Shown one piece after another: positions 1,503 to 50,241 of a DNA stretch of 64,000 nt. Location: assembly GCA_964016885.1 (NCBI GenBank), contig OZ024743.1:344410001-344474000 (forward strand). The letters run 5' to 3'. Below the pieces are notes generated by a model that was given only the letters and a program-made list of their open reading frames with translations, was not told where the DNA came from and searched no databases. The stretch's first letter is position 1; each line of letters begins with the position of its first letter. Origin of the DNA: Eledone cirrhosa (taxonomy: Eukaryota). The position numbers and the translations under genes were made by a program.

Positions 1503-1545
1503 GTAGTCCTGATGATTTCTAACAAGAATGAAACGCGTAGATTAC
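1503..1545 (+). ncRNA. Type I hammerhead ribozyme (array copy)
   Basis: GUAGUC-CUGAUGA-U-UUCU-AACA-AGAA-U-GAAA-CGCG-UA/GAUUAC. Stem I is GUAGUC:GAUUAC, stem II is UUCU:AGAA, stem III is the palindrome ACGCGU, and the predicted cut is after GUA (1539). A distal 16-bp helix pairs 1479-1494 with 1552-1567. Confidence 0.92.
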
Positions 1546-1812
1546 TTCCCTTGCTTTTATCGAGAATCTAATTGTAATACGTGACGTATTCTATTCTATA
1601 GCGATTAGGTCTTCAAAATGTTTATTATAAACATACAGAATATTTTCGAATATTCTATGTCTATATTCACATATATATCGCTATTTCAGAGCATTTATTC
1701 CAATTTCTAATTTCTGCCGGACCGGCAACCGCTCTTTCAAACCAGTTCCTGTACACGGCTAAGTATTCTATAAGTCTCTAGCTGTGTCATTCTCGATAAA
1801 AGCACTGGATAT

Positions 1813-1855
1813 GTAGTCCTGATGATTTCTAACAAGAATGAAACGCGTAGATTAC
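1813..1855 (+). ncRNA. Type I hammerhead ribozyme (array copy)
   Basis: Same sequence as 1503-1545, offset by 310. Confidence 0.92.
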
Positions 1856-2122
1856 TTCCCTTGCTTTTATCGAGAATCTAATTGTAATACGTGACGTATT
1901 CTATTCTATAGCGATTAGGTCTTCAAAATGTTTATTATAAACATACAGAATATTTTCGAATATTCTATGTCTATATTCACATATATATCGCTATTTCAGA
2001 GCATTTATTCCAATTTCTAATTTCTGCCGGACCGGCAACCGCTCTTTCAAACCAGTTCCTGTACACGGCTAAGTATTCTATAAGTCTCTAGCTGTGTCAT
2101 TCTCGATAAAAGCACTGGATAT

Positions 2123-2165
2123 GTAGTCCTGATGATTTCTAACAAGAATGAAACGCGTAGATTAC
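2123..2165 (+). ncRNA. Type I hammerhead ribozyme (array copy)
   Basis: Same sequence as 1503-1545, offset by 620. Confidence 0.92.
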
Positions 2166-2676
2166 TTCCCTTGCTTTTATCGAGAATCTAATTGTAATAC
2201 GTGACGTATTCTATTCTATAGCGATTAGGTCTTCAAAATGTTTATTATAAACATACAGAATATTTTCGAATATTCTATGTCTATATTCACATATATATCG
2301 CTATTTCAGAGCATTTATTCCAATATATATATATATATATATCGAATAATGTACACCATTTTACCAGGGGAAAAAAATACTGGTCCACCCACACACACAC
2401 ACACACATTCTCACACACACACACACATACACACACACACACACACACACACACACATACACACACGTACATTAACATACAAAGAGACTTATACACACAT
2501 ACACACACACTTCTCCGTATAAGACAAAAGCTGAAAAATATCTTTTGACATGCTAAAATACCCACCACTGCTTACAGACACATTCCTACTGACCGTCCGC
2601 TACCACGAATTACTCTGCTACACACACACACACACACACACACACACACATATTTGTTGTGAAAGAGTAATTTCTC

Positions 2677-2923
2677 AGTCTTGGCGCAAAATCAATTTTT
2701 TACATTCACATGACCTCTACCGACCAATCAAAATTGTTTTGACCACAAGAATTTTTGCAACACCAAGTAGCGCTGGAGCCACTTTTTTAACATAAAAACA
2801 GTCTTGGCGCAAAATCAATATTTTACATTCACATGACCTCTACCGACCAATCAAAATTGTTTTGACCACAAGAATTTTTGCAACACCAAAGTAGCGCTGG
2901 AGCCACTTTTTTAACATAAAAAC
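2677..2923 (+). repeat. Tandem duplication of an ~122-bp module related to the Neptune-type 3' UTR/pLTR at 21430-22250
   Basis: cagtcttggcgcaaaatc...gaccaatca...gagccactttttt occurs twice. The same motifs occur in reverse complement at 21430-21800. Confidence 0.65.
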
Positions 2924-46189: not shown

Positions 46190-46510
46190 ACATACATACA
46201 TGATGGCTGCCCCCTCGTTATCGAGTATGGCCATTGCATGATTTAACATTATTAATAATTATTAATTAATGCTATCTTGCAATGCCTGTACGTGAAGATT
46301 TTCTTTTAAATGAGGATATAATGTGCACTGAGCCAAACCCACTCTCTGAGCGATAGTAGCTATAATCCCAAAAGAAGAAAAGATCAAAACCATCGGTAAC
46401 AACTAAACCGCAGGTTTTATGTCGGAGTTTTCCCAGTTTCCTGAGTTGCCTTCTCCTAGAAGAATGCCCTGACCGTTGGTTTAACCGCGCGATCGGGTAT
46501 CCATCCCGAT
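46190..46510 (-). mobile_element. Short bipartite RTE-derived element with (TATG)n tail
   Basis: The minus strand has tctaggagaaggcaactc (RTE 5' UTR-like) and ends atggccatactcgataacgagggggcagccatcatgtatgtatg, similar to the 3' ends at 6110 and 6840. Confidence 0.5.
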
Positions 46511-47556
46511 TATTTCTATGTCCTCGTGCATATATATACATATGTATATATGTATATACATATGTATATATGTATATACATGTATATACATATATACACA
46601 ATATATATACATACATACTTATATAGATACATACACAAATGAATTCATGTCTACCAAGATGATGTCCTATTCGAAAGGAAAAAACCTTGTTGCAGGTTGA
46701 TTCTGAGAGGACATGTATTTCTCAATTACTTTTTTAATAGTTGATTGAGGCGGTTCTGTATCTATCACTAGCTTATTTATGATTAGTTGAGGTACCTTAC
46801 CTCTTTTATTTACAAAATATCATTCCTATTCACTGAAAAAGATGCGGGGTGGCAGAGAGAATTTACAAAACCCACCTAATTTACTACTGCGTCTTGTCTG
46901 AATTTGCCTGGGAGAAAAATGTGAAACGTTATTTTTCTATGGGTAGGCCGGAGAAAGAATGACAGCAATCAGCGCCATAAGGAGGACCTCCGAGAATTTT
47001 CGGGAAAAAGAAGAGGAAGGGCTATTTAGTACATCAATAAATTGATATATCGTCAAACAAGCGATCTAGTTAGAATACATGTGCACATTTAGGTGAGTGT
47101 GAGCGTCGTGCATCAAGTCAAGCTTACGAACAGATGCCGTCTGTTTCATTCAGACACTTTGAGTCAACAAGAATCTATTAGACCAGTCCACATATCACCT
47201 GACCTACCTTGGATAAAAAGTTTCTAGGTACACACATATGGTCAGTCATGACCGTAGGTCGTTTTAAATATATATTTACATGAATATTTGTTTCATCTAT
47301 CTATCTATCTATCTATCTATCTATCTATCTATCTATCTATCTATCTATCTCTTTCTTTCTCCGCCTCTCTCTCTCTCTCTCTCTCTCTCTCCATATATAT
47401 ATATGTATGTATATATATATATATATATATATATATATATATATATATATATATATTTATATATATATATATATAACAAAGGAATTGTGGTAAGGAACCA
47501 GATGGACCATAACGCACCAGAGTACTCAATACTTAGGGTAGTAGAGTGGGAATTAG

Positions 47557-47664
47557 GAAAAAGTATGACCCCGACGGCAGAGCTCAAGCCGTTTCGACGG
47601 CTATTTCTGGACTGAAATACCCGTCGAAACGGCTTGAGCTCTGCCGTCGGGGTCATATTTTTTC
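47557..47664. repeat. Fold-back hairpin (~51-bp arms, 6-nt loop) at the end of a short (TA)n-flanked insert (47476-47664)
   Basis: tatgaccccgacggcagagctcaagccgtttcgacgg pairs with ccgtcgaaacggcttgagctctgccgtcggggtcata. Confidence 0.85.
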
Positions 47665-48581
47665 ATATATATATATATATATATATATATAAATAAATTA
47701 TCGTGAATCGGAACTTCGGCCCACGAAATAACGAAAAAACAATCTTCGAAATGTGTGGCAAAGAGCTATAACTAACGTTTAATACCAATACACTGAGACG
47801 ATGCTTAAACAATCATTCGCACAGCCAAAAATACGACCAAGAAAATTCGGGTCAAACAAATAAAAATATATATGAATGAAAAATTTACCCGGATCCCTGG
47901 AAATATGGTAAAATCCAGCATTTTGGTTTGTGCGGCTCCTAAATCAGGTACCGTCCGCCTACATAAAAAATGTCAGGCTTCTGGTAAGATGATGAACAAT
48001 ATATATATATATATATATATATATATATATATATATATATATATATATATATATATATATATATATATATATAATTGAAAATATAGAAATTAATGTGAGC
48101 AAGGAGCCAACAGTATTTCATAATATATAAGTGACTATAACGTCAAAGTGGAAAATAATTAACGTAAGATATGGGAAAATAATTCAAACTCAATTTTTTA
48201 AAAAATCAAGACAGATTTTATCCACAGATTTTGTGAAATCCAGGGAAAAAACCAATAGAGTCTTAACTCAGAATAAAATAAAGTTTAAATACTCATCCTT
48301 CAATTTGGAAAAACTACAAATGCTCTATATAGTCTTAAAAAGACTATTTCACGAAACTTTTCAGTGCGATTGGTCACGGTTGGAAACCTTCCTCGGTAGA
48401 GCTGAAACACGATAACCCTAAGACTCACTGCCAAAATATGCAAAAAAAAATATATATATATATACACACACACACATATATATATAGGGAGCGGATGAAA
48501 AACCCAAGAACACGCAATTCATCCGTTCCCTTGTCGATCCAATTTGGATTGCATCGGAAACATAACCTTATTATGTAACAA

Positions 48582-48655
48582 GCTGTCTGATGATGACACG
48601 ACACTCGCACACAGAACAGTGTGGCCAGTGTCGTCACTGAAATAAATATCACAGC
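48582..48655 (+). ncRNA. Type I hammerhead ribozyme with long stem II
   Basis: GCUGU-CUGAUGA-UGAC-ACGACACU..CACAC-AGAACA-GUGUG..AGUGUCGU-CACU-GAAA-U-AAAU-A-UC/ACAGC. Stem I is a perfect 5 bp and the cleavage triplet is AUC. It lies in a ~220-bp (TA)n-flanked insert. Confidence 0.82.
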
Positions 48656-49165
48656 ATTATTATTAAAGGACTTGAACATCTGAAACTACTTCGCTTTTCC
48701 TTATTCTCTCTCTCTCTCTATATATATATATATATAAAATTGTGAGTGTGAAAAACAGGCAGACAAAATTTACTTAACGTTTTTTCGTAGTCCAGAGAAA
48801 TTAACTAAACAAATCAATTCATCGGAGCTAAATATAAATTATAAGTATGAAGAAAAAATAGATAAATCTATACTCAATAATTCTCCCAGTCCTGACTATC
48901 AGCTGTTTCACTTGTGCTATGTAGAAAAAGTGCAAGATCATTGCATTTGCACCTTATCCAAGAGGCTTGAAGCTTTCTAAGGGGCTCATCCGATTAGGAC
49001 CAGTTTCTTTCAAAGTGATCGCCGCCAGACACAAATTCAATATATATATAAATAGGCGCGTGTGTGTATGCGTATATATATATATATATATATATATATA
49101 TATATATATATATATATATATATATATATATATATATATATGTGTGTGTGTGTGTGTGCGTGTAT

Positions 49166-50241
49166 ATGGAAAAAATGAAACGAAATTTCATTTCTCACTC
49201 TTAGAACGGCTGTTACTTAAATATAAGTATGTATACGTACATACATATATGTATACAGACGTACAGTAGTATGTATATATATACATACATGCACACACAT
49301 ATATATATGTACGTATGGATTTACCGAACATTTATTATAATGCTCGGATTGTTTGTAAACAAACATCCCGAATTAAGCCGTACACTGTTTAGAAACCATC
49401 GTTGCCCTTTTGTTCAACCCTGACAGTGTACATACATATATGTATACAGAGGTACAGTAGTATGTATATATATACATACATGCACACATATATATATATA
49501 TGTACGTATGAATTTACTGAACATTCATTATAATGCTCGGTGTGTTTGTAAACAAACATCCGGCATTAAGCCGTACAATGTTTAGCAACCATCGTTGCCC
49601 TTTTGTTCAACACTGACAGTGTTGAACAAAAGGGCAACCATGGTTGCTAAACACTGTACGGTTTAATTCGGGATGTTTGTTTACAAACACACCGAGCATT
49701 ATAATAAATGTTCGGTAAATCCATACGTACATATATATATGTGTGCATGTATGTATACATATACATGCTACTGTACGTCTGTATACATATATGTATGTAC
49801 GTATACATACTTATATTTAAGTAACAGCCGTACTAAGAGTGAGAAATGAAATTTCGTTTCATTTTTTCCATTTATCGTTTTCGGTGCGCCCGGCCGATTA
49901 ACTCACTCGATATGCAAATTAGACTGCTCAGCCATTAATATGCATAAGGAAAGTATATACTTTCAGACGTTCAATCATCTGGCAGGAAGGTATACGGTGC
50001 TGACGATAGCTAATAAGCTTGAAACTAGTACATCGTTCCTTTGTCAGTGTTGAACAAAAGGGCAACGATAGTTGTTAAACACTGTACGGCTTAATTCGGG
50101 ATGTTTGTTTACAAACAAACTGGGCATTATAATAAATGTTCGGTAAATCCATATGTACATATATATATGTGTGCATGTATGTATATATATACATACTACT
50201 GTACGTCTGTATACATATATGTATGTACGTATACATACTTA
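49166..50241. mobile_element. Second retrozyme-like element: 428-bp unit (49617-50044) plus a partial second unit, preceded by two inverted partial copies
   Basis: cagtgttgaacaaaagggcaac at 49617 and 50045. 49166-49615 consists of reverse-complement copies with the axis at 49616. HHR at 49995-50035, no ORF, microsatellite flanks. Confidence 0.85.
49995..50035 (+). ncRNA. Type I hammerhead ribozyme
   Basis: CGGUG-CUGACGA-U-AGCU-AAUA-AGCU-U-GAAA-CUAG-UA/CAUCG, with palindromic stem III ACUAGU. Confidence 0.9.

Follow-up and report, generated by a model that had tools for sequence, protein, structure and literature searches.

Two Hammerhead Motifs with the Same Layout

How short repeats that carry a ribozyme and no gene are processed and copied is the question raised by a 64,000-nt stretch of the 3.0-Gb genome of Eledone cirrhosa (GCA_964016885.1, OZ024743.1:344,410,001-344,474,000; hereafter the window), which holds two tandem repeats with units of 310 and 428 bp, here called families A and B, each with a hammerhead motif. 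An earlier note on this DNA had described them as two unrelated retrozymes sharing one unusual hammerhead architecture that implied dimeric cleavage. The answer that we consider likely is that both are non-long terminal repeat (non-LTR) retrozymes with a canonical type I hammerhead, predicted to cleave as double hammerheads and likely copied into (TA)n tracts by the reverse transcriptase-endonuclease of a Penelope-like element (PLE).

The type A hammerhead lies at 1503-1545 on the + strand (helix I strands 1503-1508 and 1540-1545; predicted cleavage after A1539), with identical copies at 1813-1855 and 2123-2165 (+) and at 298-340, 608-650, 918-960, and 1228-1270 (-). The type B hammerhead is found at 49994-50036 (+; predicted cleavage after A50030), its presence being as described before and its start one base to the left of the 49995 first given. 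The two motifs read GUAGUC-CUGAUGA-U-UUCU-AACA-AGAA-U-GAAA-CGCG-UA-GAUUAC (A; DNA GTAGTC-CTGATGA-T-TTCT-AACA-AGAA-T-GAAA-CGCG-TA-GATTAC) and ACGGUG-CUGACGA-U-AGCU-AAUA-AGCU-U-GAAA-CUAG-UA-CAUCGU (B; DNA ACGGTG-CTGACGA-T-AGCT-AATA-AGCT-T-GAAA-CTAG-TA-CATCGT); all their elements are equal in length, and the core boxes CUGANGA ... GAAA ... UH occur in the order and with the spacing of a type I hammerhead. A strict descriptor, requiring a 4-bp helix II, a palindromic tetraloop, and at least 5/6 bp in helix I, retrieved eight sites in the window (seven type A, one type B) and none in 200 block shuffles, so that both motifs are present and read as originally proposed. A loose pattern gave 40 overlapping matches in the window, versus a mean of 4.2 and a largest count of 20 in 100 shuffles.

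The best Rfam match of both motifs is Hammerhead_HH9 (RF02275), with all core positions aligned: the alignment covers the core, the 4-bp helix II, and helix I together with its internal loop, but it lacks the model's helix III stem-loop and leaves positions 10.1-11.1 unpaired. At gathering thresholds, Rfam reports one 5S rRNA and no hammerhead in the whole window, and a whole-window scan by E-value is dominated by microRNA-like matches on microsatellites. A literal text search of a collection of papers found neither motif string.

A Canonical Architecture with One Variant Element

The proposal that this architecture is unusual does not hold, as it matches the published canonical metazoan type I hammerhead, with a helix I of 6 bp, a helix II of 4 bp, and a helix III of 1-2 bp closed by a palindromic loop of 2-4 nt (PMC4209133). 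Helix III in the window falls within that definition, being made of a single A15.1-U16.1 pair that closes CGCG in type A and CUAG in type B. According to Cervera and de la Pena (2014; PMC4209133), a hammerhead of this kind is too unstable for cleavage as a monomer and is active as a dimer in tandem repeats. Closely similar features are known from the axolotl, where HHR_Amex1 has a single-pair helix III with a palindromic tetraloop cap, the helix II of HHR_Amex2 starts with a U U mismatch at its base, and dimers of both cleave far better than monomers (PMC7229834). Neither the architecture nor the idea of a dimer is new to the literature; the two families themselves are new, and the earlier catch was correct and its mechanistic guess reasonable.

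The only variant element is the presence of both traits, i.e., the U.U and the minimal palindromic helix III, in one motif. As had been noticed, U.U takes the place of the G10.1-C11.1 pair in both motifs, and U and U were found in every copy read. At the scale of the genome, the 31-nt pattern CTGANGAT-N12-TGAAA-N4-TA, with U at 10.1 and 11.1, has 44,424 matches versus 29 for the reversed control, whereas G10.1-C11.1 in the same frame has only 35, versus 6 in its own control; the form with U.U and a palindromic helix III dominates this genome. The presence of U.U in ~44,000 copies, along with a minimal palindromic helix III, offers a natural case in which to ask to what extent the core can do without G10.1 when acting as a dimer.

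A few of the G10.1-C11.1 matches look like genuine relatives (e.g., C1:163575910-163576843, C4:329220374, and C2:156671244). One such relative has a helix II of AUGU/ACAU, a CUAG palindrome, and an antisense-then-sense layout with a period of ~470 bp, and a second one is dispersed, with a helix II of GAAC/GUUC and a UGCA palindrome. The palindromic tetraloop (CGCG, CUAG, or UGCA) is kept in all four hammerhead types seen in the genome.

The amphibian retrozymes (the newt satellite 2 type/HHR_Amex1, and HHR_Amex2) are likewise of type I, with tandem units of ~330-350 bp. They differ from families A and B in that both weakening traits are here united in one motif, in that the sequences are unrelated, and in that the host here is an invertebrate, a group in which retrozymes usually have a more stable helix III (PMC7229834).

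Probably Homologous Modules in Otherwise Unrelated Units

The two units had been said to show no obvious similarity outside the motif, and this was confirmed: blastn returned only 11-mers, with a best E of 0.025. The further claim that stems I and II are fully covaried between them was too strong, since 4/6 pairs of helix I and 2/4 pairs of helix II do differ on both sides, while 4/10 pairs are identical. Covariation was then assessed on a set of 20 sequences comprising types A and B with their subfamilies. Of the pairing cells, 90.3% are paired, whereas shuffles reach 73.9 +/- 1.5% and slid partners 39-53%; 9/15 pairs show changes on both sides. Helix I has 97.5% of its cells paired and 5/6 pairs changed on both sides, and helix II 98.8% and 2/4, respectively; the pair 2.3-1.3 is G.U in 11 sequences, A-U in five, and U.G in four, and the A-U pair of helix III is kept in 19/20.

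Types A and B have more in common than their core. In helix I, both have a UAU/U internal loop at a distance of six pairs from the core; they also share a G.U at 2.3-1.3, an AAYA loop 2, and a distal 3-bp helix that covaries. Because of the shared internal loop, G.U pair, and loop 2, the hammerheads of A and B are probably homologous modules set within otherwise unrelated units, as judged from sequence.

Mirror-Image Arrays and Genomic Copies

The assignment of both repeats to the retrozymes is well founded: they are AT-rich, tandem units of 310 and 428 bp devoid of open reading frames, with a type I hammerhead, and they occur on many chromosomes. Their GC content (34.5% for the 310-bp unit, 36.4% for the 428-bp unit) and size are those of low-GC, 150-450 bp tandem repeats, and no stop-to-stop frame of at least 110 aa lies inside either unit. 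Animal non-LTR retrozymes are likewise low-GC tandems of 150-450 bp without open reading frames, with a type I hammerhead and highly self-paired RNA, and PLEs are their proposed mobiliser (PMC7229834; 10.64898/2026.07.22.740005).

The tandem units of 310 bp form two mirror-image arrays that meet at 1268-1270. The left, inverted arm (1..1270, -) has 4.1 units in the window and ~0.5 unit more leftward, and its sense 3' end, at q133, is followed by (AT)n. The right arm (1268..2324, +) has 3.4 units, with its 5' end, q33, at the arm junction and its sense 3' end at q159; its last 26 nt (2299-2324, +) form a 'tail', and an (AT)9 microsatellite, the presumed target, abuts this end at 2325..2342. All 310-bp units of the window are identical. 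The 428-bp repeat, for its part, comprises 1.5 (+) copies with one hammerhead (49616..50247, +; one 428-bp unit followed by q2-204, with the sense 3' end at q204 and then a TA-rich microsatellite), to which must be added an inverted partial arm (49163..49615, -) made of partial units q2-185 and then q2-259, with its sense 3' end at q259. Sense transcription would proceed away from the mirror junction in both arms; read-through of the junctions (1-2324 and 49163-50247) would give a perfect hairpin RNA of up to ~1 kb, a possible source of small RNAs.

Elsewhere in the genome, 25 first-look candidates for family A resolve into 23 loci, on nine chromosome-scale contigs and one small contig, and family B has at least 1,837 candidates; the B-type module also occurs in repeats with a period of ~424 to 502 bp. 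Units of family A differ by 0-1 bases within 10/11 arrays and by a mean of 2.8 in the eleventh, as compared to 3.9 between loci. Within one 19-unit array of this family (L061; C9:42509544-42515694), slightly divergent units recur every 7 units (2,177 bp), a spacing suggestive of higher-order repetition or of a segmental duplication at a later time. Three further sequences (L123:2449-2544, -; L123:2804-2864, +; L027:2413-2783) are 77-82% identical to positions 53-206 of unit A and may represent an older relative of the family; the two at L123 form an inverted pair ~1 kb from a GIY-YIG frame.

Among public sequencing runs, none recorded as RNA was found to hold the 310-bp unit. Three runs of unrecorded kind each contain it as one 340-letter contig with a depth of 10-15. 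A fourth, also of unrecorded kind and compared with window positions 1200-2420, yields 607 short, variant contigs of the unit with a summed word depth of 1e5 to 3e5, about one third of it with loop 2 AACG, a variant present in genomic arrays too. Such a depth would fit either an RNA that is heterogeneous and very abundant in that sample or a satellite hugely amplified there, and demonstrates neither.

Predicted Double-Hammerhead Cleavage

Dimeric cleavage was modelled with RNAcofold on two 86-nt segments (energies in kcal/mol). For type A, the cofold minimum is exactly the double hammerhead, with a 6-bp ACGCGU duplex and swapped helices I, at -66.3, as compared to -60.2 for the sum of two monomer minima and -46.8 for two enforced single hammerheads. 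For type B, the double form (-36.0) is 16.8 kcal/mol better than two single forms (-19.2), although the minimum differs from it. The dimeric cleavage put forward in the earlier note is therefore plausible, as a model, with direct agreement for type A and not for type B. A precedent is known from avocado sunblotch viroid, whose double hammerhead (Forster et al., 1988, as cited in PMC4209133) similarly extends a weak helix III through the pairing of two copies and spares the monomer circle; that RNA is an infectious replicon, in contrast to the genomic repeats described here.

Folding of whole cleavage-to-cleavage monomers gave -71.8 for type A (z = -3.9) and -130.3 for type B (z = -7.5), with 0/100 shuffles as stable in either case. 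In these modelled folds, helix I and its extension close the molecule in both types and bring its ends together, as expected if the monomers are ligated into circles.

It could be argued instead that the hammerheads cleave adequately as monomers during transcription, the single A-U pair with its tetraloop serving as helix III and the palindrome being incidental. The 5S rRNA of the window has an invertebrate-like look. Most invertebrate retrozymes do self-cleave efficiently, and axolotl monomers still cleave weakly, by up to 22% in 1 h (PMC7229834). The efficient invertebrate motifs, however, have a longer helix III (PMC7229834), whereas here a single base pair makes up helix III and U.U weakens helix II, and the hammerhead fold of the monomer lies 6.7 (A) and 7.6 (B) kcal/mol above its minimum. 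Together with the retention of a palindromic tetraloop in every hammerhead type seen in the genome, this makes monomer cleavage an improbable account, even if it is the best placed of the alternatives to predicted double-hammerhead cleavage.

Insertion Anatomy of the Two Families

The way in which the copies are inserted was examined at all 23 loci of family A and at the best 30 of the at least 1,837 candidates of family B. In family A, 11/23 loci are two-armed, and all 11 have an antisense arm followed by a sense arm, (-)->(+), on the top strand. The arms measure from 0.6 to 22 units; out of 34, 18 end at q131-135, 13 at q154-164, and three elsewhere, and 29/31 of the canonical ends lead into alternating A/T for 8 nt or more. 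All nine informative two-armed loci combine one short and one long end. The 5' ends are variable, with no pile-up at the cleavage site. Since the arms cross that site, a linear cleaved monomer cannot be the template; an uncleaved multimer might be.

Family B follows the same rules, with 18 (-)->(+) junctions and a single (+)->(-) one, at which 3' ends face each other over a shared (AT)n. Its 52 arms comprise 21 short ones ending near q204, 23 long ones ending near q260, and eight ending elsewhere, and of its two-armed insertions, 11 are heterotypic and two homotypic. If each end were chosen independently and with equal odds, the probability of finding at least 20/22 heterotypic insertions in families A and B would be ~6e-5. 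Among the first 100 places of the motif in the genome, counted by eye, 11 (-)->(+) pairs lie within 1 kb of each other, versus one (+)->(-) pair, the latter between different families. In none of the loci of either set (23 for A, best 30 for B) does an arm continue into coding sequence.

An origin of the mirror arrays in assembly artefacts or unequal crossing-over was considered and rejected, given the one-sided polarity (11/11 in A, 18:1 in B, 11:1 in the motif list) and the ending of arms at different, defined sites.

A Resident Penelope-Like Element with the Same Insertion Pattern

Next to array A lies a 5'-truncated PLE (2937..4797, +), which retains a reverse transcriptase remnant (YVDD near 3270) and an open frame (3350-4372, +) encoding a GIY-YIG domain at its C-terminal end. 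A motif at 4610-4652 (+) resembles a min-hammerhead, with a bulge after A9, G10.1-C11.1, a 5-bp helix II, and a 2-bp helix III with an AA loop; it has no Rfam hammerhead match, and the label is a reading by eye. The copy ends in ...GTATAACAATAT, followed by (TA)n. Further 3' ends of the same family are found at 19654..19850 (+), 20600-20815 (-), and 51562-51790 (+); genome-wide, a first look with its 3' part gave at least 3,518 candidates. No downstream hammerhead-like motif was found at the 30 best GIY-YIG loci, about half of which (those matching on the - strand) were scanned on the wrong strand only.

At 30 loci out of the at least 3,518 candidates, this PLE displays the two kinds of ends seen in the retrozymes: one is short, with ...AACAATAT right next to (AT)n, and the other is longer by a ~56-nt tail, which precedes (AT)n. 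Its (-)->(+) pairs are heterotypic in 11/11 cases, with one (+)->(-) pair in addition, which brings heterotypic pairing to 31/33 across the two retrozyme families and the PLE. No common fold emerged for the three 'tail' regions, whose structures differ (z = -0.7, -2.9, and +1.2). Copies of retrozyme B occur within 1.5 kb of 4/30 of these PLE 3'-end loci (L118, L109, L115, and L093; also L146), and at L118 the (AT)n tract that follows the PLE end itself contains such a copy; both kinds of elements may accumulate in microsatellites.

These features match those published for PLEs. PLE insertions are known to be truncated at the 5' end, to form partial tandems, to include an inverted copy that is likewise 5'-truncated, to bear a tail that is often confined to one end, and to favour microsatellites (Craig et al., 2021, PMC8557442). 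Frangieh et al. (2024, PMC11167929) found that PLE reverse transcription begins at two adjacent internal sites on either side of the tail and that both DNA strands are cut. The retrozymes described here resemble endonuclease-positive PLEs (PMC8557442, PMC11167929) in truncation, partial tandems, inverted copy, tail, and microsatellite bias. They differ from them in having no reverse transcriptase or endonuclease gene and only 310 or 428 nt, and from the PLE pseudo-LTRs (pLTRs) in that their hammerhead is canonical, not a min-hammerhead. As for the (TA)n bias, it has been reported for Naiads, while the resident family has a C-terminal GIY-YIG. In the available parts of the retrozyme literature (PMC7229834; 10.64898/2026.07.22.740005, both without supplements), the pattern of two starts and a tail, the polarity of mirror arms, and the (TA)n target were not found.

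A Model for Copying by a Penelope-Type Enzyme

The sharing of one insertion pattern by the retrozymes and the resident PLE, namely 5' truncation, partial tandems, an inverted 5'-truncated copy, two 3' ends, and a common (AT)n target, points to Penelope-type target-primed copying of circular or multimeric RNA. In the resulting model, the palindromes (ACGCGU or ACUAGU) of two copies in multimeric transcripts would anneal to form a helix III of 6 bp, helices I being swapped, and this double hammerhead is predicted to cut after A17. The monomers, with their ends held by helix I, would be ligated into circles, which would stay uncut because they hold only one hammerhead copy. A PLE enzyme would then nick both strands of a (TA)n tract, and priming by each DNA end would take place at one of two neighbouring RNA sites that end in AU, q133/q159 in A and q204/q260 in B. 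By circling the template several times, the enzyme would generate tandem units over intact hammerhead sites, with a variable 5' end, and the joining of two cDNAs at a variable point would create the mirror-image 5' arm.

That both DNA ends of one Penelope-made break prime on one and the same retrozyme RNA circle, one per adjacent start site, is a tentative refinement that we regard as possible rather than probable. Priming of the two break ends at separate sites would explain both the combination of one short and one long end and the antisense-then-sense order of the arms. If dual priming on one circle is true, retrozymes would provide a compact natural read-out of the unsolved integration mechanism of PLEs.

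The mobiliser of animal retrozymes is an open question, for which PLEs were proposed in 2020; for vertebrates, mobilisation by PLEs is backed by co-occurrence and homology (Li, Clavereau, and Pollet, 2026; 10.64898/2026.07.22.740005). Two families that are unlike the resident PLE in sequence and carry its full integration scar add independent structural evidence, and the defined RNA start sites (q133/q159 and q204/q260), together with the (TA)n target, suit a biochemical test.

Several points weigh against cleavage as double hammerheads and copying by a PLE. The Rfam scores of the motifs (19.2 bits for A and 18.1 bits for B with RF02275) are well below the gathering score of 52, and the covariation derives mostly from the single split between A and B, with few independent events. 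The cofold minimum of type B is another structure, at -40.8, and not the double hammerhead. The N7 of G10.1 helps bind the metal of the catalytic site; U.U removes G10.1, and activity may therefore be low. PLE min-hammerheads cleave poorly (PMC4209133), and 8/9 dimers of Xenopus retrozymes gave no product in vitro (preprint 10.64898/2026.07.22.740005). With respect to the partner, neither retrozyme unit matches the window PLE copy by blastn, one PLE family having been compared, such that the homology to PLE pLTRs used in the 2026 preprint is not seen with this copy, and the hammerhead-like motif of the window PLE is of another type (bulge and G-C) than those of A and B; the partner element is thus not pinned to this PLE. 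Finally, hammerhead mutations had no effect on PLE insertion in vitro (PMC11167929).

This independence of insertion from hammerhead activity, along with the lack of RNA-seq reads ending at the hammerhead site (PMC11167929), would also fit hammerheads that are passengers with little or no role, the PLE copying uncleaved linear transcripts and tandems arising through template jumping, with no circle; PLEs indeed form partial tandems too, and Naiad PLEs thrive without hammerheads (PMC8557442). Such a scenario is at odds with the hammerhead module being the only part conserved between otherwise unrelated units, with covarying stems, and with the 44,424 intact motifs of the genome. Nor would it readily account for arrays of up to 22 near-identical units of exactly one period, or for the modelled juxtaposition of monomer ends, and we judge it unlikely, slightly more so than monomer cleavage. 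A last alternative, namely that the units are truncated terminal (pLTR) pieces of a PLE in tandem-plus-inverted form and not separate elements, would agree with their insertion anatomy being that of the resident PLE, but is highly improbable given arrays of up to 22 units whose period is that of the short unit itself (310 or ~428 bp), the absence of arms reaching coding sequence in the 23 A and best 30 B loci, and units with neither blastn similarity to the window PLE copy nor a frame of at least 110 aa.

Other Elements in the Window

Apart from the retrozymes and the PLE copies, the window contains two LINE-type (long interspersed nuclear element) remnants, at 31862-35278 (-) and 40118-42441 (-), with RVT_1, Exo_endo_phos, and zf-RVT domains, as well as a complete 5S rRNA gene at 11631-11749 (-; 105.9 bits, E 3e-22).

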